Assembly (NCBI GenBank): GCA_001779925.1
Contig: MFEK01000014.1
Span: 86,983-150,982 of the forward strand
Direction of reading: 5' to 3'
From: Candidatus Doudnabacteria bacterium RIFCSPHIGHO2_01_FULL_46_14
GTDB taxonomy: Bacteria > Patescibacteriota > Doudnabacteria > UBA920 > 2-01-FULL-46-14
Length of the DNA: 64,000 bases
The notes under the pieces are model-generated. The model ran no database searches, was not told the DNA's origin, and saw only the letters and a program-made list of their open reading frames with translations. A program made the translations under genes and the position numbers. Positions 1 through 57,715 of the stretch are shown in pieces. Every line of letters begins with the position of its first letter. Position 1 is the first letter of the stretch.

Positions 1-1010
1 GGCAGCTCCGCGTTCAGGCTTATTCTGACGAAGCAATCGGCAAGGATATTATTACTGCCGATACGATTAAAGACCCTTCGGGATTGATCAAGTTGATCAA
101 AAAAACCATTACCCAGCCGAAATTCGGGCGAGTTACCACGCCCTATGTGATAGCTTCCATTCCTGAAACCAAATGTTTTGTGCGAGTCATCCAAATGGCT
201 GCGGTTTCCGCCGAAGAAGCCAAGGAAGCCATACCATGGGAGGCCGAAGCTTACATTCCCATTCCGATCGGTCAGGTCTATTTAGATTGGGTCATACTTT
301 CCGGCGATCCTAATCAAAAAGACAAAATGACTGTGCTGATTACTGCGGCGCCCAAGGATTACATTGACGACTACACCAGGATCTTAAAGGAAGCGTCCCT
401 GGAACCGGTAGCATTGGAGATTGAATCCCAGGCCACAGCGCGCAGTCTTGTCTCCAAGCTCGAAGAAACAGTGCTGATTTTGGACATCAATACCCTGCGG
501 ACCAGTTTTATTGTCTACGATCACAACACCCTGCAATTTACGTCTTCCGTGCCGATCGCGGGCAATGTTTTCACGGAAGGTGTAGCCAAGGCTTTGAATG
601 TCAGCACTGAGGAAGCAGAGAAAATAAAGCGCAGGGACGGGCTTGATGAAACGAAAAATGACGGCGCTGTAAAAAAAGCGCTTGCCCCGATTTTGAACAA
701 TCTTGTTTCAGAAATAAAAAACATTATTCGTTTCCACGAGGAACATGCCGCGGCCACGAGCAAGATTTCCCGGATTTTGCTTTCCGGAGGATCGAGCAAG
801 CTTAAGCACCTGCCTTCGGTCCTGTCGGAACGATTGTCCGGAAGCGATCTGTCTGACAGGGCGTTCCGGTCTTTGCCAGGGCTTAAAATAGAGCTTGGGA
901 ACCCTTGGGTAAAAGTCCTCGGCAAAAAACAAACTCCGCCCTTGTCGCGGGAAGATTCGCTTAGTTACGCCACAGCCATTGGTTTGGCGCTTCGGGGGTT
1001 TGAAGAATGA
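1..1010 (+). CDS. pilM: Type IV pilus assembly ATPase-like protein PilM (5' end outside window)
   Basis: Frame 3 is open from nt 3 with no upstream stop. Actin-like PilM motifs LDINTLRTSFIVYD and GNVFTEG. Followed by pilN and pilO. Confidence 0.8.
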   Translation, partial: QLRVQAYSDEAIGKDIITADTIKDPSGLIKLIKKTITQPKFGRVTTPYVIASIPETKCFVRVIQMAAVSAEEAKEAIPWEAEAYIPIPIGQVYLDWVILSGDPNQKDKMTVLITAAPKDYIDDYTRILKEASLEPVALEIESQATARSLVSKLEETVLILDINTLRTSFIVYDHNTLQFTSSVPIAGNVFTEGVAKALNVSTEEAEKIKRRDGLDETKNDGAVKKALAPILNNLVSEIKNIIRFHEEHAAATSKISRILLSGGSSKLKHLPSVLSERLSGSDLSDRAFRSLPGLKIELGNPWVKVLGKKQTPPLSREDSLSYATAIGLALRGFEE

Positions 1011-1011
1011 G

Positions 1012-1091
1012 CCCCGTTAGAAATTTGATCAAGAAAAATTAGACAAATAATTATGATAATACAAATTAACCTACAAGGATTTCTAACGGGG
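1012..1091. mobile_element. 80-bp MITE-like element with perfect 13-bp TIRs CCCCGTTAGAAAT / ATTTCTAACGGGG around a 54-bp AT-rich core, flanked by 4-bp direct repeat TGAG (1008-1011 and 1092-1095)
   Basis: TIRs and TSD read directly from the sequence. Removing the element restores a GAATGAGCGCT junction with pilM TGA overlapping pilN ATG. Confidence 0.65.
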
Positions 1092-1663
1092 TGAGCGCTG
1101 TCGCCGCAAAAAAACGGATCAACCTTCTGCCACCGGAGGAACAAAAAGAAGTAGCGCGTCTGGAAATAAACGCGGAAATTTTACATTTCGGCATAATTTT
1201 GACTGCAAGCTTGCTCGTCCTCGCCGCTGTTTTGTTCGGAGTGAATTTGTGGCTTGGCCGAACTGTGAGCAAGAATGACCAAGAGATCGCGAAATATTCG
1301 ACGCAACTCGAAGCGTATCAGGGGACGAGCTTGCAAAAAGAAGTCGCCGCGTTGAACGAAAACATTGAGAATTTCAAAATGCTTTCGGAGCAGAGCATGA
1401 AATGGTCGCCGTATTTAATGGAGCTGGCAACGCTCATTCCCAAGGACGTCAGTCTTGATTCCATACAGTTGAACCGGATTACGGGAAAGGTCGAGGTTAC
1501 CGGCCGGGCATCAAACCGCAATTCCGTTTTGGCCCTGCGCCAAAGAGTTCTCGATTCCAAGCATTTTAAGAATATCAATTTCCCCCTTTATAACCTGGAA
1601 ACAGCCCGAAACGTTAGCTGGAAATACCGTTTTTATTTGAGGATGGAAGAGGCGGAAGAATAA
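1091..1663 (+). CDS. pilN: Type IV pilus assembly protein PilN
   Basis: KKRINLLPPEE N-terminus, a single TM helix and position after pilM. The GTG start is created by the terminal G of the element plus the TSD. Confidence 0.7.
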   Translation: MSAVAAKKRINLLPPEEQKEVARLEINAEILHFGIILTASLLVLAAVLFGVNLWLGRTVSKNDQEIAKYSTQLEAYQGTSLQKEVAALNENIENFKMLSEQSMKWSPYLMELATLIPKDVSLDSIQLNRITGKVEVTGRASNRNSVLALRQRVLDSKHFKNINFPLYNLETARNVSWKYRFYLRMEEAEE

Positions 1664-7605: not shown

Positions 7606-8670
7606 ATGATCAATTTTTTCTACGGCGAAGACACATTCACTCTGAGCCAGGAAATTACAAATTTAAAAGCAAGGTTTAAATTTGTGGAAACGCTGTCCAT
7701 CAACGGCGAATCAGATGTTCAGCTCAAAAATAAACTTCAGGACATCCTGCAAAGCCAAGGACTGTTTGTACAAAAAAAACTAGTAATTTTGAACAATTTT
7801 TTAACTGATGTAAAAGCCTATCCGCAGACTGAGGAGTATTTGCTTAAGGCTTTGAATAACTCGAACAGTGAGACTACGGTAGTGATTGCGCAGGAAGAAA
7901 AATTCGATCGCAGATTGAAATTTTTTAAAGCCTTGCAGAAAATAGCCCAGAATCGCGAATTCACTATCCCGGCGGGAAAAGATCTGGAAATTTGGATTAA
8001 GAGTTATTTGGGTCACCGGGGATTTGAAATCGAAAACAGTGGGCTTGTGGAATTAATTGCAAGATTGAGTGATGATGGTATTGACCCCGTTAGAAATAGC
8101 CCGTCCCAATGGGCATCTGGGCGTACTAGCACGGGCGAGATTGCTAACGGGACGAGTTTGTGGCAGGTCAGCTCGGAGTTGGAGAAATTGATGCTATTTC
8201 GATCCCCCCCCTCCCTCAGTCCCTCCCCACCAGGGGGAGGGAAGATTGCATTCGCTGACGTTCGCGATCTTGTGATGCCTAATATTTCCCAAAATGTGTT
8301 CCAGCTCACCAATCTATTCGCTGAAGGAAGAGGCCGTGAAGCTGTATCGCTTTTGGAAAAAATGATGAGCGCACCGCAGGCCTCGGATCTGAAATCTCAA
8401 ACCATTCAGATCATCGGGGGTCTGGCCTCCCAGATCCGAAGCTTGCTTTTGGTCAAGGATTTGGAAAGAGAGACACCTTCAAAGATTGCCGAGATTTTGA
8501 GTTGGAAAGAGGGACGAGTTTGGATAAACTCAAAGCTGGCCAAAAAATTCACAAAGGAAAAATTGCTTGGATTGATGCGCGACCTACGTGCGCTCGATTT
8601 ACGCTTGAAAACTTCGGAAGAACCGCCTAAACTGCTATTATCGCTATTCTTACAGAAAGCCAAAGTTTAA
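7606..8670 (+). CDS. holA: DNA polymerase III delta subunit-like protein carrying an in-frame repeat insertion
   Basis: N-terminal MINFFYGEDTF delta-subunit motif. A low-complexity insert (PVRNSPSQWASGRT..., PPSLSPSPPGGG) is encoded by the repeat elements at 8085-8245. Confidence 0.55.
   Translation: MINFFYGEDTFTLSQEITNLKARFKFVETLSINGESDVQLKNKLQDILQSQGLFVQKKLVILNNFLTDVKAYPQTEEYLLKALNNSNSETTVVIAQEEKFDRRLKFFKALQKIAQNREFTIPAGKDLEIWIKSYLGHRGFEIENSGLVELIARLSDDGIDPVRNSPSQWASGRTSTGEIANGTSLWQVSSELEKLMLFRSPPSLSPSPPGGGKIAFADVRDLVMPNISQNVFQLTNLFAEGRGREAVSLLEKMMSAPQASDLKSQTIQIIGGLASQIRSLLLVKDLERETPSKIAEILSWKEGRVWINSKLAKKFTKEKLLGLMRDLRALDLRLKTSEEPPKLLLSLFLQKAKV
8085..8151. mobile_element. Second copy of the CCCCGTTAGAAAT-TIR element family, inserted in frame inside holA
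   Basis: Shares the 20-mer TTAGAAATAGCCCGTCCCAA and further homology with the copy at 24369-24429. Imperfect TIR CCCCGTTAGAAAT / ATTGCTAACGGG. Confidence 0.5.
8201..8245. repeat. GC-rich hairpin repeat (TCCCTCCCC ACCA GGGGGAGGGA) of the CCCCTCC..GGAGGGG family, in frame in holA
   Basis: Family members at 10167-10199, 10576-10598 and 54241-54300. Confidence 0.45.
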
Positions 8671-8746
8671 CACGTTAGAAATAACAAAGAGTTAACATCA
8701 AGCGCGTAGAAACCAAACATATCTAGCGGTATCTAGAAAGGAATTT

Positions 8747-13412: not shown

Positions 13413-13452
13413 CACAATAATTCGAATAAACGAGTCCCCGTAGTTCAACTTG

Positions 13453-13464
13453 CCCCGTTAGGCA
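13453..13464. repeat. Left arm CCCCGTTAGGCA of a perfect 12-bp inverted repeat; partner TGCCTAACGGGG at 13541-13552
   Basis: Shares the CCCCGTTAG core with the MITE TIRs at 1012, 8085 and 24369. Confidence 0.6.
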
Positions 13465-13466
13465 TT

Positions 13467-13538
13467 CTCCCCGTAGTTCAATGGATAGAACGGGAGCCTT
13501 CTAAGCTCTTGATGTAGGTTCGATTCCTACCGGGGGGA
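13467..13538 (+). tRNA. tRNA-Arg (anticodon TCT), inner intact copy, no CCA encoded
   Basis: Acceptor CTCCCCG/CGGGGGG, D arm GTTC..GAAC, anticodon stem GGAGC/GCTCT with loop CTTCTAA, T arm GTAGGTTCGATTCCTAC. Confidence 0.75.
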
Positions 13539-13659
13539 TGTGCCTAACGGGGTGAAGATAGAACACTGGTCTTCTAAGCCGGATATGTAGGTTTGATTCC
13601 TACCGGGGATACCAACGAGGCAGTAATTTGTAATTAGTACTTAGCCTATCCAAAATACT

Positions 13660-16786: not shown

Positions 16787-17473
16787 ATGGAAAAACTAAA
16801 GAAAATTTATTTTATCGCTGGGGTAGGAATCATGGCTTTTGGCATTGCTGCCGGCGCCGTATGGACTTTCCATCGGCCGGAGGAGAAAGCTCCTGAGAGC
16901 GCAACCGAAAGCGGAGTTTTAGGAGAGTCAAAAGAAAAAACTGCCGGCGCTGATTCTGATTCTGCAGATAGCCCAGCACCTGATCTCCTTGAAAATCCTG
17001 CATCAGCGCAAGCAGGCAAGGAATCGATTAAGCCATCTGCACCAGTCTCGGCGCCGCCTCCCGCCCAAGCTCCTGCCCCTCCGCCAGCTGGCGGACCAAA
17101 GCCAAAACCAATAGTAAAAAAGATTGATCCGTGTATTCAGGCTGCGGGCGATTTGGAGGCAAAAAAATCAGCAGCGCAGAAACTACTGGAGAAAGAACAA
17201 GGGGAAATTGAAAAGGAGTTTCAAGACCTTGCCAGAAAACGCACCGACGCGATAAATAAATATCTTACCGCAATCGCCCTGGCTACCGCAAAATACAATT
17301 CCTCGACCAGCACAGAAGCTTATGTTATTTATAAAGACGAACAAACCGAAGCGCAAAGCGATTACGCTCAGGCAAATGCGGACATCAGCGTTCAGGAAAC
17401 AGCAGTGACTGAGAGTAAGAAAATATCCCGGCAAAAATACGATGCTATTGCCGCGGAGCAGTTGTCTTGCTGA
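16787..17473 (+). CDS. Membrane-anchored protein with Pro/Ala-rich linker, unknown function
   Basis: N-terminal TM helix, APPPAQAPAPPPAGGPKPKP linker, coiled-coil C-terminus. Confidence 0.4.
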   Translation: MEKLKKIYFIAGVGIMAFGIAAGAVWTFHRPEEKAPESATESGVLGESKEKTAGADSDSADSPAPDLLENPASAQAGKESIKPSAPVSAPPPAQAPAPPPAGGPKPKPIVKKIDPCIQAAGDLEAKKSAAQKLLEKEQGEIEKEFQDLARKRTDAINKYLTAIALATAKYNSSTSTEAYVIYKDEQTEAQSDYAQANADISVQETAVTESKKISRQKYDAIAAEQLSC

Positions 17474-17497
17474 GCCGCAATTATTAATTTCTCACGG

Positions 17498-17848
17498 GTG
17501 AATAACGAAATCAAAATCGTCCAATCGCCAATTTCAATAGATGAGCTGCGGCAAATAGCTGCAAAGACTTTTGGCGATATGGTGAAAATCGTTGTCGATT
17601 TAGAAAAGGGAATTATGGCAGCAGGCGGGGAGCTTCATGCGGACGAGGAGGCGATACTGCTCGATCATGGTTCTAAACAAAATGATTTGTGGGGTGCAAA
17701 CATTTATATCAATGAACCGCGCGATTCATGGCTTGTGTACGATTCGATGATCAACCTGAGACCGAGCCAGGGGAACCTTTTGCGTACCGTGCAGAGTTCC
17801 GAAATCCGCGATAAAATTACCCAAGTCGTAAACAAATTGATACAATGA
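17498..17848 (+). CDS. Hypothetical protein (116 aa)
   Basis: ORF; ATGA-coupled to the next ORF. Confidence 0.4.
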   Translation: MNNEIKIVQSPISIDELRQIAAKTFGDMVKIVVDLEKGIMAAGGELHADEEAILLDHGSKQNDLWGANIYINEPRDSWLVYDSMINLRPSQGNLLRTVQSSEIRDKITQVVNKLIQ

Positions 17849-23736: not shown

Positions 23737-24279
23737 ATGTCGGTATTGAAACAAAAAATAAAATCAGGGTTTACTTTGATAGAGTTATTGGTGGTTATCG
23801 CCGTGATCGGTCTGCTGGCGAGCGTGATTTTGATTAGCTTGAACACCGCCCGGATCAAAGCCAGAGATAACCAGCGCAAGGCTACACTGAGGCAGCTAAA
23901 GACGGCTTTGGAACTCTATTTTGATGCTAATGGCAGTTACCCTGTAACTGTAGCCGGACCCTGGCCTTGGTGGTATTCGTCAGAGCCTGGTGACGCGGCA
24001 GCTAACGGCCCCGGCAACAACGGCGTGTGGATTTCAGGGCTGGTTCCTACCTATCTAGGATCTCTGCCGCGTGACCCACTCGGAGGAATCTCGCCTTACC
24101 CGGGTTGCGGCGGGACCTGGAAAAGATCGTACATATACACGAGTGATGCTACGAGTTATAAACTCGTCTCGCAGTGCTCTCCAGAAGGGGGGACAGTACT
24201 GTCCTCTGACGCTTTTTACGATCCGGTTCGCCCAGGTTATGCTTGGATGGTGTGTGCCGGCGTATCGTGTTCTTATTGA
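23737..24279 (+). CDS. Type IV pilin-like protein, array member 1
   Basis: Leader MSVLKQKIKSG then FTLIELLVVIAVIGLLASVILISLNTARIKARD; Cys pair near the C-terminus. Confidence 0.65.
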   Translation: MSVLKQKIKSGFTLIELLVVIAVIGLLASVILISLNTARIKARDNQRKATLRQLKTALELYFDANGSYPVTVAGPWPWWYSSEPGDAAANGPGNNGVWISGLVPTYLGSLPRDPLGGISPYPGCGGTWKRSYIYTSDATSYKLVSQCSPEGGTVLSSDAFYDPVRPGYAWMVCAGVSCSY

Positions 24280-24368
24280 AAGATATAGATTTGAGATCTA
24301 AAATCCAGTATTCTCGCTCATGGCAAGCAATGATGTAGCCTTACAAAGCAGGGGGAGGCTTTACCCTC

Positions 24369-24429
24369 TTAGAAATAGCCCGTCCCAAAGGCTCTTTGGG
24401 CGCACAAAAGCGCGGGCGCAATTTCAAAT
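24369..24429. mobile_element. 61-bp member of the CCCCGTTAGAAAT element family inserted at the pilin GFTL-coding site, flanked by 12-bp direct repeat GGCTTTACCCTC (24357-24368 and 24431-24442)
   Basis: Shares the 20-mer TTAGAAATAGCCCGTCCCAA with the holA copy. Direct repeats read from the sequence. Confidence 0.6.
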
Positions 24430-24904
24430 GGGCTTTACCCTCATCGAACTCCTCGTGGTCATCTCCGTCATCGGGCTTTTGGCCAGCGTGATTATGGTGG
24501 CTTTGAATTCAGCAAGAGTAAAAGCACGGGACATTAAAAGAATGTCCGATATAGGACAATTGCAGACGGCTTTGGAACTTTATTACGATAAATACAGTAT
24601 TTATCCGAACATCTCTCAATCCGCTGATTCTACCAATTGCGAAGATCGCACGCCGGCCCTAGTTTTTTATTTGGGTGAATTCATGTCATCTATTCCCCAC
24701 GACCCACAAGGTCCGCCCGCTGTTCCAAATGTTGATGCCGGTCCCGATCGCCATTGTTATTTTTATAATGTAAAAAAGAGCGGCCAGGGTTATGTAATTA
24801 TGGCTTACCAGGTCGAGCAGGTAACGACGGCTGCAAAAGGTGAAGGAGCGGCGTGTTATCCGGATGTGGTAAACGTTTATTGTAAAGGAATCAATTACCA
24901 ATAA
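24428..24904 (+). CDS. Type IV pilin-like protein, array member 2 (alternative upstream start 24320 reads through the inserted element)
   Basis: MGFTLIELLVVISVIGLLASVIMVALNSARVKARD; the ATG lies at the element/target junction. Confidence 0.55.
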   Translation: MGFTLIELLVVISVIGLLASVIMVALNSARVKARDIKRMSDIGQLQTALELYYDKYSIYPNISQSADSTNCEDRTPALVFYLGEFMSSIPHDPQGPPAVPNVDAGPDRHCYFYNVKKSGQGYVIMAYQVEQVTTAAKGEGAACYPDVVNVYCKGINYQ

Positions 24905-24905
24905 T

Positions 24906-25481
24906 ATGGATAATAAAAAGAATTTACAGGCCAATTCAGGCTTTATCCCCACACCACAACGCCGTTTGGTGTGGGGCTTTACCCTTATCGAACTTCTTGT
25001 GGTCATATCCGTGATCGGGTTGTTGGCGAGCGTGGTTATAATTTCCCTGAATTCATCAAGGATCAAAACCAGAGACACGGTGAGAAAACAAACTTTAAAG
25101 CAGCTGCAAAAGGCTTTGGAACTGTATTTTGACGCCAACGGCAATTATCCAATAGTGTCGCCTTACTATTCTTCAGAACCAGGAGACGTATGGCCTAACG
25201 GATCCGGCGGCAATGGCGACTGGATTCCCGGACTATCGCCGAATTATGTTTCCAAGCTGCCTCGCGACCCTCTTGGCGGCGCTTCCACGAATCCGGTTTG
25301 CACCCCAGGAGGTTATAAACGAGCTTATTATTACCGAAGCCTGGATGGCAAAGAGTACAAGCTTTATTCTCACTGTGGTCCCGAAGGTTCAGTAAATTCC
25401 GATGATCCTTTTTATGATCCGTCCCGGCCAACCTGGGCCTGGATGGTCTGCTCCGGCGAACCGGCGTGTTCAACGTGGTAA
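24906..25481 (+). CDS. Type IV pilin-like protein, array member 3, with a hairpin insertion in its leader
   Basis: Leader ...ANSGFIPTPQRRLVWG then FTLIELLVVISVIGLL. The insert CCCCACACCACAACGCCGTTTGGTGTGGGG (24947-24976) lies between GGCTTTATC and GGCTTTACCC. Confidence 0.6.
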   Translation: MDNKKNLQANSGFIPTPQRRLVWGFTLIELLVVISVIGLLASVVIISLNSSRIKTRDTVRKQTLKQLQKALELYFDANGNYPIVSPYYSSEPGDVWPNGSGGNGDWIPGLSPNYVSKLPRDPLGGASTNPVCTPGGYKRAYYYRSLDGKEYKLYSHCGPEGSVNSDDPFYDPSRPTWAWMVCSGEPACSTW

Positions 25482-25516
25482 AATAAAGTAAACATTTGAC
25501 AATTAACATTTAACAA

Positions 25517-26044
25517 TTGACAAAGAGCGCACAAATCAAAAGTCAAGGCTTTACCCTCATTGAGCTCCTCGTGGTCATTTCCCTCATCGGCTTGCTCGCG
25601 AGCGTGATTTTGGTCAGTTTAAATTCGTCGCGCGTTAAGGCCAGGGACACGGTGAGGAAGCAAACCCTTAGGCAGCTGCAAAAGGGTTTAGAATTTTACT
25701 ACAATCAAATTGGAAGTTATCCGGTAACTCCAGTTAACTGCTGCTCTTCGGAACCTGGCGACCCTTGGCATCCCCAGGATGACTGGATTCCCGGTTTGGA
25801 GCCTAGCTATATTTCTAAATTGCCTAGGGATCCTTTGGGTGGAATTTCGCCAATTTGCGCAGGACCCAGATATAGAAGTTATTTGTACCAAAGCGACAGC
25901 GACGGTAAAAACTATAAACTTTATGCTTATTGCAGTCCGGAAGGCGCTATGACTGACGACCCGTCCGATCCCTTTTACAGCCCAGGGGCTTGGTGGTATA
26001 CCTGGAGGGTCTGCGGCGGCACATCGGACTGCAATTCATGGTGA
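25517..26044 (+). CDS. Type IV pilin-like protein, array member 4
   Basis: TTG start; MTKSAQIKSQG then FTLIELLVVISLIGLLASVILVSLNSSRVKARD. Confidence 0.6.
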   Translation: MTKSAQIKSQGFTLIELLVVISLIGLLASVILVSLNSSRVKARDTVRKQTLRQLQKGLEFYYNQIGSYPVTPVNCCSSEPGDPWHPQDDWIPGLEPSYISKLPRDPLGGISPICAGPRYRSYLYQSDSDGKNYKLYAYCSPEGAMTDDPSDPFYSPGAWWYTWRVCGGTSDCNSW

Positions 26045-26055
26045 TAAATAGACTT

Positions 26056-26592
26056 ATGGAAAAAAACCAAAAAGCCTTTACCCTCATCGAACTCCTCGTC
26101 GTCATCGCCGTCATCGGTTTGCTGGCCAGCGTGGTTTTGGTGGCGATGAATAATTCACGGGCCAAGGCAAGGGATGCCAAACGGATCGCTGAAAAAAAAC
26201 AGGCGGTTACGGCGTTTAATTTATATTACAATGATAACGGCAAGTGGCCGCTAACCGTTTCTTCCTTTACACCCTCATCGAATTGTTTGGCGTCAAGTTC
26301 GGAAACTTGCTGGCTTGGCTCCAGAACAGGATTAGATTCACTTGTTAGCGCCCTTTCGCCGTATTTATCTTCTCTTCCGACAAACAATGTGCCAAGCGGT
26401 GTCCGGGCGTATAATCGGTTATTATATACAGACAATGCAAATGCCGGCGATATTGTCGCAGGCAGTCCCGCCGGAGCGTGGCTCATTTGGGTTCAGGAAA
26501 CCGGCATGACACCGGACAAGTGCGCAAGCAATATTATTTCAAACTATAGCGACGGCTATTTGTATTGCTATGAATTTTTGGGTCCGCCTTAG
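26056..26592 (+). CDS. Type IV pilin-like protein, array member 5 (Ala at the -1 cleavage position)
   Basis: MEKNQKA then FTLIELLVVIAVIGLLASVVLVAMNNSRAKARD. The upstream ORF extension to 25990 overlaps the previous gene and is unlikely. Confidence 0.55.
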   Translation: MEKNQKAFTLIELLVVIAVIGLLASVVLVAMNNSRAKARDAKRIAEKKQAVTAFNLYYNDNGKWPLTVSSFTPSSNCLASSSETCWLGSRTGLDSLVSALSPYLSSLPTNNVPSGVRAYNRLLYTDNANAGDIVAGSPAGAWLIWVQETGMTPDKCASNIISNYSDGYLYCYEFLGPP

Positions 26593-26623
26593 AAATATAT
26601 TTTGTATATTATAAAATAATTTT

Positions 26624-27262
26624 ATGAAGCGAAAAGGCTTTACCCTCATCAAGCTCCCCAGCTCTTCGTCCGCCTCTGGCGGACTACGGCGGGCCAATGC
26701 TTTCACATTGATAGAACTCCTCGTGGTCATTTCCGTCATCGGCCTGCTCGCCAGTATAGTTTTGGTGAGTTTGAACAGCGCGCGGGCCAAGGCAAGGGAT
26801 GCCAAGCGCTTAACCGACTTAGCCCAAATTAAGAAAGCTCTGGAATTGTATTATGACGATAACGGCAGTTATCCTAACACTAATTACAATGTCGGACCCG
26901 GGCAGTGGCGCACCCAATGCGCTTCCTCGGATTCATGGGTTACGCCAAACCTGCCGGCTGACCAGGTGATTAAAGATATTTATAATGGCAAAGGACTGGC
27001 TCCAACTTATATTAGCCCCTTCCCTTCCGACCCCCTCTTGAACGCAGCTTCGAGTCAAAATTGTTATAATTATACTTCCAATGGGACTGACTACAAGTTA
27101 ATAGATACAGCTTTAACAGATATGACCCTTGCCCAAATCAACCAGTATCCAAGCTATAAAGACCCTGCCAGAAACGACACAACCAATACAGCCCCGTGCA
27201 CCTCATTTGCTGATTATTCACTGACTTTGGCCATTTGGTCTCCTGGGGCGCAGTGCTGGTAA
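26624..27262 (+). CDS. Type IV pilin-like protein, array member 6, with a hairpin-repeat insertion in its leader
   Basis: MKRKGFTLIKLPSSSSASGGLRRANA then FTLIELLVVISVIGLL. The insert (26664-26693) has the GTCCGCCTCTGGCGGAC hairpin between GCTTTACCCTCATC and GCTTTCACATTGAT. Confidence 0.6.
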   Translation: MKRKGFTLIKLPSSSSASGGLRRANAFTLIELLVVISVIGLLASIVLVSLNSARAKARDAKRLTDLAQIKKALELYYDDNGSYPNTNYNVGPGQWRTQCASSDSWVTPNLPADQVIKDIYNGKGLAPTYISPFPSDPLLNAASSQNCYNYTSNGTDYKLIDTALTDMTLAQINQYPSYKDPARNDTTNTAPCTSFADYSLTLAIWSPGAQCW

Positions 27263-27278
27263 TTTTTTATTAAATTTT

Positions 27279-27755
27279 ATGAAGCGAAAAGGCTTTACCC
27301 TAGTTGAACTCCTCGTGGTCATCGCCGTGATTGGGCTTTTGGCCAGCGTGATTTTGGTGAGTTTGAACAGCGCGCGTGTGAAAGCCAGAGATGCTAGACG
27401 AAAAGCGGACATGTATCAATTGGGACTGGCAATACAGCTTTACTATGACGCTAACGGCACATTCCCGCCCAGCGTTTTAGATACAATTGACAACACAACA
27501 ACAAAAACCGGAGATTGGCCGCCTGCCTTTAAGACGGAGCTTGCCCCTTTTTTGTCCAAGCTTCCCCTGGACCCACTTTCAAATAGCGCTTTCCCTTTTT
27601 ACGGAGCAGAGAGGATGAATCGGGCTCCGGATGCGAATTGTAATGGGCAATTTGTCATCTGGATGTATTTTGAAGGAACGACTGATCCTGATTATGGTAA
27701 ATATATTTGCGGTTGGGCGCCGCTCCATTATATTAAGTTATTAGGCAAGTATTAA
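27279..27755 (+). CDS. Type IV pilin-like protein, array member 7
   Basis: MKRKG then FTLVELLVVIAVIGLLASVILVSLNSARVKARD. Confidence 0.65.
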   Translation: MKRKGFTLVELLVVIAVIGLLASVILVSLNSARVKARDARRKADMYQLGLAIQLYYDANGTFPPSVLDTIDNTTTKTGDWPPAFKTELAPFLSKLPLDPLSNSAFPFYGAERMNRAPDANCNGQFVIWMYFEGTTDPDYGKYICGWAPLHYIKLLGKY

Positions 27756-27767
27756 CTGCCCGAATAA

Positions 27768-28280
27768 ATGAAACAAAAAGGCTTAACCTTTACCCTTCGA
27801 CTACGCTCAGGGTTCACCCTCATCGAACTCCTCGTGGTTATTTCCGTCATCGGCCTGCTGGCGAGCGTGATTCTTATTTCTTTGAACAGCGCGCGGGCCA
27901 AGGCAAGGGATGCCAAACGCATCGCTGATATTCGGCAAATTCAAAAAGCTTTGGAACTCTACTATGATCAAAATAATGAATATCCGCGTTATGACGGCGG
28001 GGGAATAGTGACTTGCGGTGGTGCTTGGGCAACTACGGATGACGCGCCCACATTTATGCCCTGCTGGAATGATTTGCAAACAAAATTATCCCCGTATATA
28101 AATAGATTGCCGGTTGAAATTCTTTGGACATCCAGCGGTTATCATTATAAAACTCAAAACAGCGGACAAGGTTATTATTTGTTAATGTATCCTGAAAATA
28201 ACTCGATGTATCGGACTGATTCGCCTTGTTATGATAGTCAAGGTTCTCTTTGGTGGTGTACAGGGAATAATTGGGAATAA
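27768..28280 (+). CDS. Type IV pilin-like protein, array member 8, with a short leader insertion
   Basis: MKQKGLTFTLRLRSG then FTLIELLVVISVIGLL; duplicated GGCTTAACCTTTACCCTT / GGGTTCACCCTC. Confidence 0.6.
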   Translation: MKQKGLTFTLRLRSGFTLIELLVVISVIGLLASVILISLNSARAKARDAKRIADIRQIQKALELYYDQNNEYPRYDGGGIVTCGGAWATTDDAPTFMPCWNDLQTKLSPYINRLPVEILWTSSGYHYKTQNSGQGYYLLMYPENNSMYRTDSPCYDSQGSLWWCTGNNWE

Positions 28281-28301
28281 GGTAAGAAAAAATTAATAGA
28301 A

Positions 28302-28856
28302 ATGAGACCTCCACAAATACAAATCAAATATTCTTCTAAAGGCTTTACCCTCATCGAACTCCTGGTCGTTATTTCCGTTATCGGTCTGCTTGCTAGTGTG
28401 GTTATGATTGCTCTGAATTCCGCCCGTTTAAAGGCCAGGAACACCAAACGGCTTGCTGACATCAGGCAGTTGACCACAGCATTCAATCTTGGCCTTGATA
28501 GCAGCAGTAGCGGTTCCCTGCCTGCAAGCGGAGGTAATAATTGGGTATGCGTCAGCGCCAGTTGCTATGGGTCATGGGCGACAAGCTACCCCGCTAACGC
28601 TGGTGTTGATGCTTTTTTGGCGCCATATATTGCCAGCAAACCAACAGCTCCGCTTGGCAGTTATGCGGGAGCGGGCGGATATTTGTATATTTTTGGCTAC
28701 AACGGGGGGGCTGTGTCCCCGTATGACGGCAGTATTCTCGCAGGCACGTATTTGGACGCCCTCATGGAACCGCCTCTCACCCCAGGTATTTGCGGTTCAG
28801 GCAGAATATGGGACGCCACCTCAAACTACATTGAGTGCATGTTTAAGCTTGATTAA
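28302..28856 (+). CDS. Type IV pilin-like protein, array member 9
   Basis: MRPPQIQIKYSSKG then FTLIELLVVISVIGLLASVVMIALNSARLKARN. Confidence 0.65.
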   Translation: MRPPQIQIKYSSKGFTLIELLVVISVIGLLASVVMIALNSARLKARNTKRLADIRQLTTAFNLGLDSSSSGSLPASGGNNWVCVSASCYGSWATSYPANAGVDAFLAPYIASKPTAPLGSYAGAGGYLYIFGYNGGAVSPYDGSILAGTYLDALMEPPLTPGICGSGRIWDATSNYIECMFKLD

Positions 28857-29378
28857 ATGAAACAAAAAGGGTTTACCCTCATTGAACTCCTCGTGGTCAT
28901 TGCCGTCATCGGCTTGCTCGCCAGCGTGGTTTTGATGGCTTTGAATGCGACTCGAGTCAAAGCGAGGAATAGCAGGAGAGCTGCGGATATTCAACAGCTG
29001 GTTAAGGCTTTTAACTTAGCTGCCGATGCCGACGGCGGCACATTTCCCACTACTGGAATTAATCAATATTTTTGTATAAGCAGTACTTGCAGCGGCATAT
29101 GGCCTACCAACCCCAATGTTATAGTTGATAGCGCTTTGGCTCCCTATATAAAAAAGCCGACCGATCCCGTAGATTCTACCAGAGCCGGCGGGGGCTACAT
29201 TTATAACAGCAACTGGCCTTCCGGCAATGTTAGCCCCTATGACGGCACTGCCTGGGTAGGGGGTGTTTATTTGGCTTACTTATTGGAACCCGTTTCCATT
29301 ATCTCGGGCGTATGCGCACCGGGAAAAATTTGGATGGTTGACCAGACTTACATTGAGTGTTTGTTAAAGCTTGATTGA
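28857..29378 (+). CDS. Type IV pilin-like protein, array member 10
   Basis: MKQKG then FTLIELLVVIAVIGLLASVVLMALNATRVKARN. C-terminal region similar to member 9 (...YIECMFKLD versus YIECLLKLD). Confidence 0.65.
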   Translation: MKQKGFTLIELLVVIAVIGLLASVVLMALNATRVKARNSRRAADIQQLVKAFNLAADADGGTFPTTGINQYFCISSTCSGIWPTNPNVIVDSALAPYIKKPTDPVDSTRAGGGYIYNSNWPSGNVSPYDGTAWVGGVYLAYLLEPVSIISGVCAPGKIWMVDQTYIECLLKLD

Positions 29379-29868
29379 AAAAACCATGAAATCTAAATAT
29401 AAATTATCAACCGGTTTTACTTTAATCGAACTCCTCGTGGTCATCGCTGTTATCGGGCTTTTGGCGAGCGTGATTATGGTGAGTTTAAATAGTGCCAAGG
29501 CCAAGGCGCGGGATACTAAACGTAAAGCGGATTTAAAACAGGTCGCAACTGCCTTAAATCTTTATTATGACGAAAATAACTTTTTACCGGGAAATGCGTC
29601 CGGTTGGTGCTCTCTTTTTATCCACGGGGCCACTGGCTTTACGGGCAACGCCATGCCAGCTCCGCTTCTGACTAAGTACATGTCAAGCATTCCTTACGAC
29701 CCTATATGGGCTGGGGACGGGAACCCAAACAGCTACACGGCAGACTATCTGTATTATAATGTTGACAACACGAATGGTAAGTTTACTCTTTGCGCTAACT
29801 TTGAACAGGACCCGGGCAGTCTAACTGTCACGTGCGGCACTAATTATAAGTATTGCATAAGCCAATAA
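29371..29868 (+). CDS. Type IV pilin-like protein, array member 11
   Basis: MIEKTMKSKYKLSTG then FTLIELLVVIAVIGLLASVIMVSLNSAKAKARD. Confidence 0.65.
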   Translation: MIEKTMKSKYKLSTGFTLIELLVVIAVIGLLASVIMVSLNSAKAKARDTKRKADLKQVATALNLYYDENNFLPGNASGWCSLFIHGATGFTGNAMPAPLLTKYMSSIPYDPIWAGDGNPNSYTADYLYYNVDNTNGKFTLCANFEQDPGSLTVTCGTNYKYCISQ

Positions 29869-29906
29869 TTTTAAAAGGGCAAAAAATTTTAAAGTATAAT
29901 AAATTG

Positions 29907-30425
29907 ATGAACAAAATCAGACTTCAAACTGGCTTTACCTCCATCCCTCGGCCTTGTTCGTTCTTCGACAGGCTCAGAACGGCCTTGGGCTTGCCGAAAC
30001 GGTCGGGATTTACATTAATCGAACTCCTCGTGGTCATCGCTGTTATCGGGCTTTTGGCGAGCGTGATTATGGTGAGTTTAAATAGTGCCAGGGCCAAGGC
30101 GAGGGACGCGAGAAGAAAAGCGGATACAAAACAGTTGGGCACTGCTTTGGAACTATTTTACGATGCCAATAATTATTACCCTTACACGGGTTTGCCGGAT
30201 GGAAACAGCGCCGCAATGAGCTATTTAACGACTTATCTAACTCCGGCTTACCTGGCAAAAATCCCTGATGATCCTACCTGCCCGACGGTTTGCTATTCTT
30301 ACGTCCAGCTCGGAAGCGGCAAAGATTACGCGCTTTACGTGCCTCTGCAAGACAACCAAAATCCTTGCGTCATCAGGACTCCGGGCGCAACAGCTGTTTG
30401 GGCAGGTGTTCCTGGCTGTAACTAA
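29907..30425 (+). CDS. Type IV pilin-like protein, array member 12, with a ~62-bp insertion in its leader
   Basis: MNKIRLQTGFTSIPRPCSFFDRLRTALGLPKRSG then FTLIELLVVIAVIGLL. The insert (29953-30014) lies between GGCTTTACCTCC and GGGATTTACATTAATC. Confidence 0.55.
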   Translation: MNKIRLQTGFTSIPRPCSFFDRLRTALGLPKRSGFTLIELLVVIAVIGLLASVIMVSLNSARAKARDARRKADTKQLGTALELFYDANNYYPYTGLPDGNSAAMSYLTTYLTPAYLAKIPDDPTCPTVCYSYVQLGSGKDYALYVPLQDNQNPCVIRTPGATAVWAGVPGCN

Positions 30426-37750: not shown

Positions 37751-38725
37751 TTATTTTCTAAAACGCCCGTGAAACTTGGCGTGGATTTCTTTTAATCTTT
37801 TATTGGTTAAATGCGTATAGATTTGCGTAGTCGTGATGGATGCGTGTCCCAGGATTTCCTGGACTGACCTGAGGTCTGCGCCGGCCTGCAGGAGATCCGT
37901 GGCCATTGTATGCCTGAGTGTATGCGGGGAAATTTTTATAGTAATCCCTGCCAGCAGAGCGTATTTTTTCATAAGGCGCTGGATCGTGCGAGCGGTGAGC
38001 GGTGAAACATCCGAGATGTCAATTTTATTATTTGAATGTCTTACGAAAAGGGCAGGGGAGTTATCCGATCTTTTGCTGAGATAATTTTTGAGCGCGCTGC
38101 GGGCAGCTGGCGACAAAAATACAACACGGATTTTATCGCCTTTCCCTTTGACTGAGAACTCGTCTTTTTTCAGGTTGACCTGTGCGCGTTTCAGGCCCGC
38201 GCATTCAGCAACGCGAAGGCCGGTGGAAAATAAAATCTCGAGAATCGCGCGGTCGCGCAAGCGCCGAAGTTCGTCTTTTTCCTGGTTGGTTGCGCGGAAG
38301 AGTTTTTCCAAATCCTCGGATTCAAGAAAGCTTACCTGCCTTGACGGCGTTTTTGGAAGTTCCAGTTTTTCGGCGGCAAGGCTTTTGACGTCGCGTCGGG
38401 CTAAATATTTGAGGAAAGAGCGAAGAGCAATAATGTGGTAGGTTTGCGTGGCGAGTTTCAGTTCTCCGCCTTCGTCCGCCTGAGGCGGACTTCGGCGGAC
38501 TTGTCGGCGATTCAATGCGAGGCGAAAGCTTCTTACCAAATCCAAATCAACGCCAGCAGGGGATGATACTCTTCGAGATTCCGCAAATTCGCAAAATCGC
38601 CGTAAATATAAATCATAATTGCGGATGGTCAGGCGAGAGCGGTTTTTTTCCACCTCTAGGTGCTCTAGGAATTGCTGTTTGTATTTTTTTAGTTCCGTTT
38701 GTTTCATATTGTGCGACGTACACAA
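37751..38725 (-). CDS. xerC: Tyrosine recombinase XerC/XerD-like carrying an in-frame hairpin-repeat insertion
   Basis: C-terminal HTLRHTMATDLLQAGADLRSVQEILGHASITTTQIYTHL with catalytic Tyr. Extra RRQVRRSPPQADEGGE segment encoded by the repeat at 38467-38500. Confidence 0.7.
   Translation of the reverse strand: MCTSHNMKQTELKKYKQQFLEHLEVEKNRSRLTIRNYDLYLRRFCEFAESRRVSSPAGVDLDLVRSFRLALNRRQVRRSPPQADEGGELKLATQTYHIIALRSFLKYLARRDVKSLAAEKLELPKTPSRQVSFLESEDLEKLFRATNQEKDELRRLRDRAILEILFSTGLRVAECAGLKRAQVNLKKDEFSVKGKGDKIRVVFLSPAARSALKNYLSKRSDNSPALFVRHSNNKIDISDVSPLTARTIQRLMKKYALLAGITIKISPHTLRHTMATDLLQAGADLRSVQEILGHASITTTQIYTHLTNKRLKEIHAKFHGRFRK
38467..38500. repeat. Hairpin repeat CCGCCTTCGTCCGCCTGAGGCGGACTTCGGCGGAC, homologous to 26664-26693
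   Basis: CTTCGTCCGCCTNNGGCGGACTNCGGCGG shared with the pilin-leader copy. Confidence 0.55.
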
Positions 38726-45126: not shown

Positions 45127-45243
45127 AATTTGCGGCTTCCTCTTGCATAACCCGAAAATTTGTGCTATAATAATAGGTATGAATCCTGTTAGATATTACG
45201 TTTGCACAAGCAGTGTTACGGATTTTAATGTATCTTCATTATT

Positions 45244-55253: not shown

Positions 55254-56600
55254 ATGAACACAACTTTGGAAAAGGTTGTAAATTTGTGCAAACGCCGCGG
55301 GATCATTTTCCCTGGGTCTGAGATTTATGGCGGGTTGGCTAATAGTTATGATTTCGGACCGTTGGGAACAGAGCTGAAGAATAATATCAAAAAGCTGTGG
55401 TGGAAAATGTTTGTTCAGGAGCGGAATGACGTCGTTGGTTTAGATGCGGCTATAATTATGAATTCAAAAGTTTGGGACGCAAGCGGGCATGTTTCGGGTT
55501 TTAATGATTTATTAGTTGAATGTAAATTTTGTCACAGCCGTTTTCGACCGGACGTTTTGGATAAAAGCGGTGCCGTAAGTCCGCACTCTAAGTTAAAAAA
55601 TGGTTTGATCTGTCCGAATTGCAATACAGTTCGGGAGTTCAGTCAACCCATCAAATTCAACACTATGTTTCGTACGAACCTCGGGCCGGTCGAGTCCTCA
55701 GAAAACGCGGTTTATCTGCGTCCGGAAACCGCGCAGGCCATGTTTGTAGATTTTAATACCATCGCTGAAACGTCCCGTAAAAAAATCCCGTTTGGCATCG
55801 CACAAATTGGCAAAGCATTCAGAAACGAAATCACGCCCGGCAATTTCATTTTCCGCACGCGCGAGTTTGAGCTGATGGAGATCGAATACTTTGTGCAGGA
55901 GAAAGATTGGAAAAAGTATTTTGAGCATTGGCTTGCTGAAATGAAAAAATGGATTACGGCCGTCGGCATTAACTCAAAGTTAGTCGAATACGTTGAAGTA
56001 CCAGATAGTGAGCGTGCGCACTACAGTAAACGGACGATTGACGTTGAGTTTAAATATCCGTTTGGTCAAAAAGAACTCTACGGCCTTGCCTACCGCACGG
56101 ATTTTGATTTGAAAGCCCACGGCATTGAGTACCGCGATCCGGTGAGCGGAGAAAAATTTGTCCCGCATGTCATCGAGCCGGCGCTTGGCGTGGAACGAAC
56201 AGTGCTGGCGGTACTGCTGTCATGCTTTGAAGAGGTGAGAGGCGGCCGCACCAAAACCACGGAAAGCGTTAAAGAACACGAAATCGTCCTGCGCTTGCCC
56301 AAAGAAATCGCGCCGATCAAAGTGGCTATCCTGCCGCTGTCCAAGAAAGAAAATCTGACCGGCATGGCAGAAGACATCCGCAAAACACTTTCCAAACGCT
56401 GGGTGGTAGATTATGACGAAACCGGTTCGATCGGCAAACGTTATCGGCGCCAAGACGAAATAGGCACGCCGTATTGTTTGACAGTGGATTTTGATTCACT
56501 CGAGGACAAGAAAGTCACGGTGCGTGATCGCGATACCATGGAACAGGAGCGGGTCGCGGTTAACGAATTAACATTTTATTTTGCCAGCAAGCTCAATTAA
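55254..56600 (+). CDS. glyQS: Glycine--tRNA ligase, dimeric class II type
   Basis: MNTTLEKVVNLCKRRGIIFPGSEIYGG; class II motifs. The upstream ORF extension from 55173 overlaps tgt and is rejected. Confidence 0.85.
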   Translation: MNTTLEKVVNLCKRRGIIFPGSEIYGGLANSYDFGPLGTELKNNIKKLWWKMFVQERNDVVGLDAAIIMNSKVWDASGHVSGFNDLLVECKFCHSRFRPDVLDKSGAVSPHSKLKNGLICPNCNTVREFSQPIKFNTMFRTNLGPVESSENAVYLRPETAQAMFVDFNTIAETSRKKIPFGIAQIGKAFRNEITPGNFIFRTREFELMEIEYFVQEKDWKKYFEHWLAEMKKWITAVGINSKLVEYVEVPDSERAHYSKRTIDVEFKYPFGQKELYGLAYRTDFDLKAHGIEYRDPVSGEKFVPHVIEPALGVERTVLAVLLSCFEEVRGGRTKTTESVKEHEIVLRLPKEIAPIKVAILPLSKKENLTGMAEDIRKTLSKRWVVDYDETGSIGKRYRRQDEIGTPYCLTVDFDSLEDKKVTVRDRDTMEQERVAVNELTFYFASKLN

Positions 56601-57624
56601 AACAATTCAAGCTTATCTCAAAGAGCATGGCCAAGATGCTTTTTTAGTGCTGACAAAAATAAACCGTCAGTATATTTCCGGGTTCACCGGATCCATGGGC
56701 GCGGTTTTGATAACAAAAAAATCTGCAGAATTGTATGTGGACGACCGGTACACGATCCGGGCCAAGTGTGAGTCGAATTTGAAAGTTTACTCCCTTTCCT
56801 CCCTTTCGTTGAAAGGAAAAGTAGCGGTTGAAGATCATATCTCGGTTCGCGAATTCGCCAGTCTGAAGAAGAATCATAAACGCGCTAAATGGAAGATAAC
56901 TTCCAATGTGGTGGAGAATCTACGGGCGGTGAAAAGCGCGGGAGAGATCAGGGAAATAAGGAAAGCAAGTAGAATCGTTGATCTCTGTTTTTCGCGGATT
57001 CATAAATTTGTGAAGGTTGGCATCACTGAGATGCAGATTGCCCAGGAATTGGAAAGAACCGCAATCAAAAACGGCGCGGATGGCATGGCATTTGAATCCA
57101 TTGTGGCGTGGGGGGCCAATGCGGCTGCGCCGCACCACCTTTCAGGAAAGCAAAAAATCGGCCGGGACAATTTTTTGCTTTTGGATTTCGGCGTGCTGGT
57201 AAATGGCTATCATTCTGATTTCACACGCACGTTTTTCATTGGGAGGCCAAATAAAAAACAGGAGAAAATTTATAATACGGTTTTGGAGGCTCAGGTCAGG
57301 GGCATTGAAAAAGTACAGCCAGAAAATCCGGCCGCATTAGTTGATACGGCTGCTCGCCGCCATATCGAGCGGGCAGGATTTGGGAAATACTTTACCCACA
57401 ACACGGGGCATGGCGTGGGTCTGGAAATACACGAATTACCAAACTTTTCAGCTAAATCCGGCGATGTTTTGCGCGCAGGCATGGTTGTCACAGTCGAGCC
57501 GGGTATATATATTGAGGGCTGGGGCGGGGTCAGGATAGAGGATATGGTGCTCGTCAGCGATGGCGGACCTATTATCCTGTCAAAAAGCCCCAAGGACTTA
57601 GAATCAATGATTGTTAGAGTTTAA
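56581..57624 (+). CDS. M24 family Xaa-Pro aminopeptidase
   Basis: Pita-bread fold metal ligands HHLSGK...DFGVLVNGYHSD...HGVGLEIHE...EPG. Confidence 0.75.
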   Translation: MPASSIKTIQAYLKEHGQDAFLVLTKINRQYISGFTGSMGAVLITKKSAELYVDDRYTIRAKCESNLKVYSLSSLSLKGKVAVEDHISVREFASLKKNHKRAKWKITSNVVENLRAVKSAGEIREIRKASRIVDLCFSRIHKFVKVGITEMQIAQELERTAIKNGADGMAFESIVAWGANAAAPHHLSGKQKIGRDNFLLLDFGVLVNGYHSDFTRTFFIGRPNKKQEKIYNTVLEAQVRGIEKVQPENPAALVDTAARRHIERAGFGKYFTHNTGHGVGLEIHELPNFSAKSGDVLRAGMVVTVEPGIYIEGWGGVRIEDMVLVSDGGPIILSKSPKDLESMIVRV

Positions 57625-57715
57625 TGCAAAATGTAAATATCAAAATCAAAATGAAAATTAAAAATTTTAAAATTTTACATTGTCATTTTACATTTTGATT
57701 TTTTAATTTTGAATT

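Follow-up and report, generated by a model that had tools for sequence, protein, structure and literature searches.

What separates pilM from pilN in Candidatus Doudnabacteria bacterium RIFCSPHIGHO2_01_FULL_46_14? In the 64,000-nucleotide stretch of its DNA analyzed here (contig MFEK01000014.1, positions 86,983 to 150,982; hereafter the window), an 80-bp hairpin lies between these two type IV pilus genes, which overlap in related lineages. The hairpin belongs to a family with copies elsewhere in the window and in other phyla. We conclude that it is very probably a non-autonomous mobile element of the MITE (miniature inverted-repeat transposable element) type, pasted into the 4-bp target TGAG by a transposase acting in trans. 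The parts of the locus are as follows.

1-1010, + strand: pilM, 3' part; the gene extends past the left end of the window, and its TGA stop (1008-1010) lies inside the left TGAG
1008-1011, no strand: left target-site duplication, TGAG, read from the sequence; the duplication length of the family is 4 bp
1012-1024, no strand: left terminal inverted repeat, CCCCGTTAGAAAT, from sequence reading and repeat search
1025-1078, no strand: A+T-rich interior of 54 nt, with no open reading frame (ORF) and no likeness to other copies
1079-1091, no strand: right terminal inverted repeat, ATTTCTAACGGGG, whose final G begins the GTG of pilN
1092-1095, no strand: right target-site duplication, TGAG, whose TG completes the GTG start codon
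1091-1663, + strand: pilN, 190 aa, start GTG at 1091-1093; weak match to Pfam PilN

The element thus occupies positions 1012-1091, and the occupied site reads, in order, GAAGAA TGAG, CCCCGTTAGAAAT, 54 nt, ATTTCTAACGGGG, TGAG CGCTGTC. A repeat search found the two 13-mers complementary at 13 of 13 positions across the 54-nt spacer; this is the sole perfect 13-mer inverted pair with a spacer of 20-150 nt in the window. The chance rate for such pairs, taken from 30 order-1 Markov simulations of the window, is a mean of 0.27 per window, and the presence of a matching 4-mer on both flanks multiplies the chance odds by a further ~1/256. Read literally, the direct repeat is 5 bp long (TGAGC), the first C of the element being also the base after the right TGAG; we take the duplication as 4 bp, not 5, because that is the length shown by the family statistics presented below. 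The interior has a G+C content of 22%, versus 47.6% for the window. Folding of the hairpin yields -21.3 kcal/mol (z = -3.6). A promoter scan of the element detected no promoter-like site on the + strand, and the 80 bp contain no transposase ORF, the longest ORFs across them being spurious antisense frames. Since positions 961-1140 (180 bp) recur without mismatch in five independent assemblies of one population (L001-L005, from ENA, the Anantharaman Rifle scaffolds, JGI and Logan), the insertion is not an assembly artefact.

The empty site exists in three related lineages, with PilM proteins 90% (L010), 76% (L011/L012) and 71% (L013/L014) identical to that of the window. In all three, pilM and pilN overlap by 4 bp, ATGA, and pilN begins at the ATG overlapping the pilM stop. 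Alignment of the window with these relatives (alignment A1) reveals a difference of one 84-bp block, that is, the 80-bp element plus one TGAG, and is otherwise gap-free; the empty junction of the window's population would read GAATGAGCGCTGTCGCC. The two proteins are unchanged because the left TGAG retains the stop of pilM while the right TGAG, together with the final G of the element, provides an in-frame GTG for pilN. The N-terminus of PilN is MSAVAAKKRIN in the window and MTVSASKKRIN, of equal length, in L010. The comparison supports, on sequence grounds, the interpretation of the locus as a mobile-element insertion into the ATGA overlap. It also bears out much of what a first-pass annotation had proposed from the letters alone. 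The 80-bp element with its perfect inverted repeats and TGAG duplication stands on direct reading and on the five assemblies; excision of the element plus one TGAG, which had been predicted to restore the overlap of stop and ATG, gives the very ATGA of the three lineages where the empty site was sought; and the pilN GTG is indeed made of the element's terminal G and the duplicated TG. As to the hosts of the insertion, the source contigs come from the Rifle aquifer, and their PilM is labelled as a protein of Candidatus Doudnabacteria, a lineage of the Candidate Phyla Radiation (CPR). The complete pilM, present in L001, encodes 369 aa with a Pfam match to PilM_2/FtsA, and 1263 PilM homologues were so named by their sources. 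The neighborhood is a type IV pilus cluster comprising a T2SSE-type ATPase, a T2SSF-type platform protein, pilM, pilN and minor pilins; the 201-aa gene in the pilO position beside pilN has no Pfam match.

A single insertion could be an isolated event. The ends of this one are not: the window contains the 8-mer CCCGTTAG at six places, arranged as three inverted pairs, where 1.26 single hits are expected by chance, and a pattern scan for the repeat ends in one genome per species returned at least 119 further loci in other genomes. The search for other copies bearing both repeats, which the annotation had proposed as a check, thus succeeded at both scales. The family ends conform to CCCCGTTAG(A/G)NAT, with the opposing end CTAACGGGG, and the full 13-bp repeat is nearly invariant even outside the bases fixed in the scan pattern. 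The same ends are found in at least 8 phyla; the matches listed include CPR classes, Planctomycetota/Brocadiaceae, Desulfobacterota, Omnitrophota, Cloacimonadota, Elusimicrobia, KSB1 and a few Gammaproteobacteria. IMG/VR yielded one match to the family and the plasmid collection none. Copies range from 27 to ~146 bp, about 12 of 135 fall in open reading frames, and some are nested within others, the nested insertions carrying duplications of their own (L106, for example, with TAAG). Some interiors are shared: the largest such subfamily, a 94-bp type, has 16 members in Desulfobacterota-type genomes (labelled delta-proteobacteria, Syntrophaceae or Thermodesulfobacteriota), and the interior of a copy in the window's holA gene occurs in several CPR classes. 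At the gathering score, Rfam recognized only tRNAs, in the window and in 18 loci; when it was queried with the pilM/pilN element at E <= 10, the best sub-threshold match had E = 0.4. The searchable literature holds no description of the repeat sequence or of the hairpin family, which is apparently undescribed.

The duplications themselves provide the clearest signature. An exact 4-bp direct repeat abuts the CCCC...GGGG ends in 63 of 124 non-redundant elements, and 22 more show one mismatch. When the right flanks were permuted among the elements, exact matches averaged 10.9 and never exceeded 21; shifting the comparison by 1-4 nt gave 0-2, and repeat lengths of 2, 3, 5 or 6 bp gave 0-10. The duplicated 4-mers include TTTA, TAAA, TTCA, TGAA, TTGA and TCAA among others and mostly follow TNNA; TTAA was never seen. 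Their first base (-4) is T in 104 of the 124 elements and their fourth (-1) is A in 105 and G in 17, giving the target context R|TNNA|Y, to which A|TGAG|C at pilM/pilN conforms with the minority G in last position. The stop codon of a long ORF lies inside the duplication in 9 of 117 cases, versus 1.5% at control TNNA sites (about five times as often). Many duplicated 4-mers contain TGA or TAA, in keeping with this enrichment, and an insertion on a stop spares the upstream gene, as at pilM.

Gene starts on the other side are affected in a different manner. Annotated ORFs (at 45244 in the window, in L044, at 3260 in L254 and others) often start inside an element and leave it through the right repeat, read as I-S-N-G-V (ATT TCT AAC GGG GTG). 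Where the duplication begins with TG, the junction GGGG|TG yields a GTG, as at pilN. Gene starts adjoining these elements are probably often miscalled. In the metagenome-assembled genome DX4.bin27, a 93-bp element lies within a larger repeat of ~325 bp present in at least five places (L019 2046-2369 and 4832-5155; L018; L024; L038), and two inverted copies of this larger repeat bracket a 686-aa ORF.

The family is expanded in this Doudnabacteria lineage. The window holds three intact and three to four degenerate copies, ~7 in 64 kb or ~1 per 9 kb, and ~66 kb of sequence from relatives contains no copy. The degenerate copies come from a relaxed scan that gave 0-2 hits in shuffled sequence. Besides the pilM/pilN element and a tRNA-bearing copy described further on, the copies are these.

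8085-8152, no strand: copy 2, 68 bp, CCCCGTTAGAAAT...ATTGCTAACGGGA, inside holA (7606-8670)
8670-8731, no strand: probably an old copy, ACACGTTAGAAAT...ATATCTAGCGGTA, flanks TTTA/TCTA, which takes up the spacer between holA and zupT
17426-17499: weak degenerate copy from the relaxed scan
24364-24433, no strand: degenerate copy, CCCTCTTAGAAAT...ATTTCAAATGGGC, TTTA on both flanks, holA-type subfamily
45184-45262, no strand: degenerate copy, TCCTGTTAGATAT...AATTTCTAACAGCG, flanks TGAA/TGAC

Several of these sit in or against genes. The holA copy, whose interior is a G+C-rich hairpin of a subfamily also found in CPR genomes (L066, L073, L021, L106), is read through in frame as PVRNSPSQWASGRTSTGEIANG. 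It is missing from 13 HolA relatives (alignment A4) and from two relatives at the syntenic locus (alignment A2), for a net gain of 20 aa. The copy at 24364-24433, with an interior of the same type as judged by eye, is located in a type IV pilin gene (24320-24904), in the leader directly ahead of GFTLIELLVV. The annotated ATG (45244) of an 800-aa ORF falls within the right repeat of the copy at 45184-45262, and the holA-zupT spacer filled by the old copy measures only 3 nt in L011. The interiors of the three intact copies do not cluster together.

Both holA and the pilin genes show further inserts. At 8203-8243, holA carries a second in-frame G+C-rich palindrome (CCCTCCC...GGGAGGG), read as RSPPSLSPSPPGGGK; the HolA homologues P0129, P0124, P0131 and P0135 have differing Pro/Ser/Gly-rich inserts at this position, and these seem to form a further class of small insertions in CPR genes. 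Positions 23737-30425 hold an array of ~12 type IV pilin genes, and the ORFs starting at 24320, 24906, 26624, 27768 and 29853 have extra residues directly before or inside GFTLIELLVV. The pilin coding sequence GGCTTTACC includes the favored target TTTA, and the site seems to be an insertion hotspot. At 24945-24976 a separate 32-bp mini-palindrome, TCCCCACACCA...TGGTGTGGGGC, with TTTA on either flank, adds 12 aa in frame to a pilin leader (SGF[IPTPQRRLVWGF]TLIE); it has the CCCC start and the 4-bp flank in common with the main family, and its repeats are different.

The remaining intact copy carries a gene of its own and lies inside another gene of the same kind.

13453-13552, + strand: copy 3, 100 bp, CCCCGTTAGGCAT...GTGCCTAACGGGG, enclosing a tRNA-Arg(TCT) at 13466-13539
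13434-13614, + strand: resident tRNA-Arg(TCT), split in its D-loop into a 5' part (13434-13448) and a 3' part (13557-13614)

Its flanks, CTTG (13449-13452) and TGAA (13553-13556), replace the TG of the D-loop TGG, so that TTCAA-TG-GATAGAAC has become TTCAA-CTTG[element]TGAA-GATAGAAC. An intact orthologue of the split gene occupies the syntenic position of L011 (18506-18580). The nested region folds as a cloverleaf inside a cloverleaf (-82.3 kcal/mol, z = -5.9). A scan of metagenomes for two repeat cores around a T-loop motif returned at least 120 loci (L134-L253). Among the matches listed, 78 of the 120 contain a full tRNA (Val 37, Pro 18, Ala 8, Thr 5, Leu 4, Arg 3, Gly 2, Gln 1), which makes, with the window copy, 79 tRNA-bearing copies for analysis, 70 of them unique. 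Their flanks are the two halves of a second tRNA gene, interrupted most often in the anticodon loop and otherwise in the D-loop or T-loop, and leave-one-out matching assigned these outer halves to the amino acid of the inner tRNA in 61 of 68 cases. Around the element (E), 23 copies have the flanks TTCA[E]CAAG; the others carry the reverse complement, CTTG[E]TGAA, or variants. Where the gene hit is Leu-CAG or Pro-CGG, exactly [element+CAAG] has been added behind the native TTCA or TTCG. No single rule accounts for these flanks: a 2-bp CA/TG duplication, a replacement of CA and an HUH-type insertion after TTCA were each considered, and each fits only some tRNA classes.

Most outer genes look inactivated, the inner gene apparently taking over: just 23 of the 79 copies would regain their anticodon by simple excision, and the outer T-loop motif, intact in 47, shows one mismatch in 13 and is gone in 9. 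Because selection alone would not remove neutral insertions elsewhere, a mechanistic link between cargo and target likely underlies the match between the two tRNAs. One could then picture the hairpins as palindromes mobile across phyla, with any filler between their 13-bp ends, and one branch of them as a self-compensating or "homing" tRNA cassette of ~105 bp, located essentially only in the D-, anticodon- or T-loop of tRNA genes of its own identity, that would destroy such an essential gene and replace it at a single stroke. The window's tRNA-Arg(TCT) would be one event of this type, dated by the intact gene of L011. The asymmetric flanks and missing duplication of this cassette would, in turn, point to an insertion chemistry undescribed for bacterial MITEs. 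To these two ideas, taken jointly, we give an even chance. The published account of interrupted tRNA genes in this phylum covers group I introns, without the nested architecture (PMC13011429), and the searchable literature contains no description of that architecture in Patescibacteria.

Two features of the window's nested pair deserve mention on their own. The 3' part of the outer tRNA-Arg has only 2 differences from the L011 orthologue, one of them at the universally conserved C56 (GGTTCGA to GGTTTGA; position 13596), whose partner G19 was lost when the D-loop was interrupted; either the insertion is recent or the outer gene is still constrained. In addition, a segment in the 3' part of both tRNA-Arg(TCT) copies (13523-13535 and 13596-13608, ATTCCTACCGGGG) agrees with the right repeat ATTTCTAACGGGG in 11 of 13 bases. 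The match could be due to chance, to the use of tRNA 3' ends as surrogate ends, or to derivation of the repeat from a tRNA.

Several observations weigh against regarding the pilM/pilN hairpin as a transposed MITE. The annotation had suggested a search for a transposase with matching ends, and none was found: neither a transposase nor a long element with these ends turned up in the window or in ~1.7 Mb of fetched sequence, of which genome loci made up 0.97 Mb and metagenome loci 0.72 Mb. The search for an autonomous partner covered repeat cores paired at distances of 300-4000 bp, unpaired ends and the neighboring ORFs. Searches of all loci by tblastn with ISEcp1 and piggyBac transposases returned nothing, and Pfam identified no transposase among ten window proteins of 320-495 aa or among the genes adjoining element clusters. 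Only the ends are conserved, since 84 of 121 interiors are singletons in the sample, a figure that partly reflects the sampling of one genome per species, and none of 135 elements shares the pilM/pilN interior. With interiors mostly singletons and this one lacking a relative, the sample gives no sign of a recent amplification of the pilM/pilN copy. The holA copy offers no clean empty site (the closest HolA relative in that comparison is 59% identical), adds a net 60 nt rather than 72 and has no clean 4-bp duplication; and the duplication is found in 0 of the 70 unique tRNA-bearing copies, though their ends are the same as those of the family. At least some of the family would thus spread, or have been reshaped, by a route outside the simple model. 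Any effect on the translation of pilN is something we purely infer. The MITE label proposed by the first-pass annotation therefore stands as far as inverted repeats, duplication, empty site and multiple copies are concerned, and fits less well with copies conserved only in their 13-bp ends. Its adjectives "recent" and "active" went beyond what the data show: the insertion is fixed in every fetched contig of the population and has no sibling with the same interior.

The absence of a DDE gene from the sequences searched invites the thought that the ends are moved by some other enzyme, either an HUH protein acting on single strands and inserting 3' of a tetranucleotide or a site-specific recombinase, the 4-bp repeats then reflecting target choice. 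The tRNA-bearing copies lend this idea some substance. Their flanks are asymmetric, TYYA[E]CRRG or the reverse complement, without duplication; their sites in D-, anticodon- and T-loops would be single-stranded in folded single-stranded DNA; and the placement of [element+CAAG] after TTCA or TTCG in Leu-CAG and Pro-CGG genes resembles insertion of the IS200/IS605 type. In ordinary copies, however, the flanking 4-mers vary from one copy to another and yet match within each copy, which is the signature of target duplication, and the ends are true terminal inverted repeats rather than subterminal hairpins. A non-DDE mechanism seems to us unlikely. Reversing the polarity of events, so that the element would be ancestral at pilM/pilN and precisely excised in the relatives, is far less likely still. 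Transposases of the piggyBac type do excise precisely, restoring the 4-bp target, and only three related lineages were compared; but the scheme demands three independent precise losses, in lineages with PilM at 90%, 76% and 71% identity, versus one gain. Perfect repeats and an intact duplication argue for a young insertion, and translationally coupled pairs like pilM and pilN ordinarily overlap by ATGA.

It could also be asked whether the hairpin is mobile DNA at all. A regulatory structure evolved in place (attenuator, RNase III site, small RNA or the like) would agree with the stable fold and with the many family members at gene starts, where several annotated ORFs begin in the right repeat. 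It would not explain why a single clean block of 84 bp is missing in the relatives with the flanking 4 bp duplicated, or why the same 13-bp ends turn up with duplications of their own in unrelated places and phyla; moreover, the hairpin has no Rfam family, and copies also lie in frame inside coding regions. We regard a local origin as highly improbable. An RNA-level intervening sequence, removed from the transcript like an intron, has in its favor that one copy lies in a tRNA D-loop and that introns and rRNA insertions abound in CPR genomes (PMC13011429). Yet the 68-nt holA copy is read through, and its removal would break the frame. No group I or group II intron model matches, the stem is continuous, without a bulge-helix-bulge (BHB) motif, and excision restores the anticodon in few nested tRNAs (23/79); on these grounds the nested copy was rejected as a group I or BHB tRNA intron as well. 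An intron-like nature is scarcely credible.

We thus return to insertion by a transposase supplied in trans, and the events at pilM/pilN can be outlined under that reading. The enzyme would be a DDE-type transposase making a 4-bp staggered cut. The target, TGAG, sat exactly where the stop of pilM and the start of pilN overlapped in ATGA. Gap repair after the staggered cut duplicated it: the left copy retains the stop, while the right copy and the element's final G together make a GTG that continues in the original reading frame of pilN. Since the insert forms a perfect hairpin, the transcript is predicted to bring the stop of pilM and the GTG of pilN next to each other at the base of a 13-14 bp stem. 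An AAGGA at 1075-1079, on the edge between interior and right repeat, lies 11 nt upstream of the GTG, the right arm serving to space the two. The start would presumably be buried for a free ribosome, whereas a ribosome terminating on pilM would melt the left arm and free both AAGGA and GTG. Translational coupling of pilM and pilN may in this way survive the insertion.

How does the family relate to known systems? It shares with the bacterial MITEs (Correia elements, MITEAba12 and the Tn3-derived inverted-repeat miniature elements, or TIMEs) a length of tens to a few hundred bp, terminal inverted repeats, target duplication, lack of coding capacity and multiple copies, as well as presence or absence between relatives and insertion at gene boundaries that can alter expression. 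For the Correia elements too, we know of no cognate transposase. These elements of Neisseria have a TA duplication and 26-bp repeats, and a Correia element (Correia repeat enclosed element) was excluded here since the family duplicates 4 bp at TNNA and has repeats of 13 bp. The family differs from MITEs at large in conserving only its 13-bp ends around mostly unrelated interiors, in spanning at least 8 phyla and in some copies carrying a tRNA. Its 4-bp duplication at TNNA also contrasts with the 9 bp of MITEAba12 (PMC6382973) and the 5-6 bp of Tn3-derived TIMEs (PMC4133298). Repetitive extragenic palindromic sequences and bacterial interspersed mosaic elements (REP/BIME), with their REP-associated tyrosine transposases (RAYT), and the IS200/IS605 palindromes are likewise short and spread over genomes, and the tRNA variant is, like them, not fully symmetric. 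We rejected such an origin because those systems are without strict terminal inverted repeats or duplication, whereas the present copies have variable, copy-matched duplications, and their clusters adjoin housekeeping genes and no HUH gene. The Rickettsia palindromic elements (RPE), reportedly described by Ogata et al. in 2000, are another instance of palindromes tolerated in frame in the proteins of a reduced genome, as seen here in holA and the pilin leader. They come from another lineage, bear no obvious sequence relation to the family on inspection, and are 100-150 bp long and similar over their whole length; to our knowledge, clear target duplications are not among their features.

A further candidate for kinship is the IS1380/piggyBac group. 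The piggyBac element has the 13-bp repeat CCCTAGAAAGATA and a TTAA duplication, and IS1380 a duplication of 4-5 bp. The apparent likeness lies in the CC(C) ends, in the resemblance of CCCTAGAAAGATA to CCCCGTTAGAAAT and in the 4-bp T...A duplication. The differences are that tblastn found no such transposase in the fetched loci and that a TTAA duplication was never seen. IS1380 members mobilize adjacent DNA via surrogate ends (PMC9330008), which could explain the capture of cargo. An integron attC site was rejected: the core-like motifs GTTAGAA and TTCTAAC stand in the opposite order with CCCC/GGGG outside them, and there is neither an array nor an integrase, the only tyrosine recombinase in the window (37751-38725) being XerC/D-like. 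For the nested tRNA genes, comparison may be made with elements that integrate in tRNA genes and restore their target, and with archaeal tRNA introns, which occur at non-canonical positions. Like these, the tRNA variant inserts at tRNA loops, and the incoming DNA supplies the function of the gene that is hit. It differs from integrating elements in its size (~100-110 bp), in having no integrase and in carrying a full second tRNA rather than a duplicate of the 3' end; it differs from archaeal introns in having no BHB motif or group I core and in that most outer genes are not restorable by excision.

One more palindrome in the window stands apart from these elements: an A+T-rich, imperfect one at 57635-57709, with 37-nt arms that are 76% complementary, between the ORFs at 56581-57624 and 57716-58978.

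The hairpin at pilM/pilN is, then, a member of a new family of a known kind, the MITEs, with unusual family traits and a tRNA-bearing variant. It represents a textbook-clean insertion whose ancestral state is preserved in relatives, and it illustrates how two translationally coupled genes can be parted by a palindrome while both proteins stay unaltered. The very small genomes of CPR bacteria are generally considered poor in mobile elements; despite this view, the present lineage has about one hairpin per 9 kb, with holA, a pilin leader and a tRNA gene among the sites occupied. The inserts mislead gene callers and add peptides like PVRN... and ...ISNG to proteins. Occurrence of the same 13-bp ends across phyla implies either a widespread enzyme or frequent transfer between phyla. 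The tRNA variant, if confirmed, would constitute a new route by which a selfish element enters essential single-copy genes, and it would explain some of the "extra" or split tRNA genes in metagenome bins.

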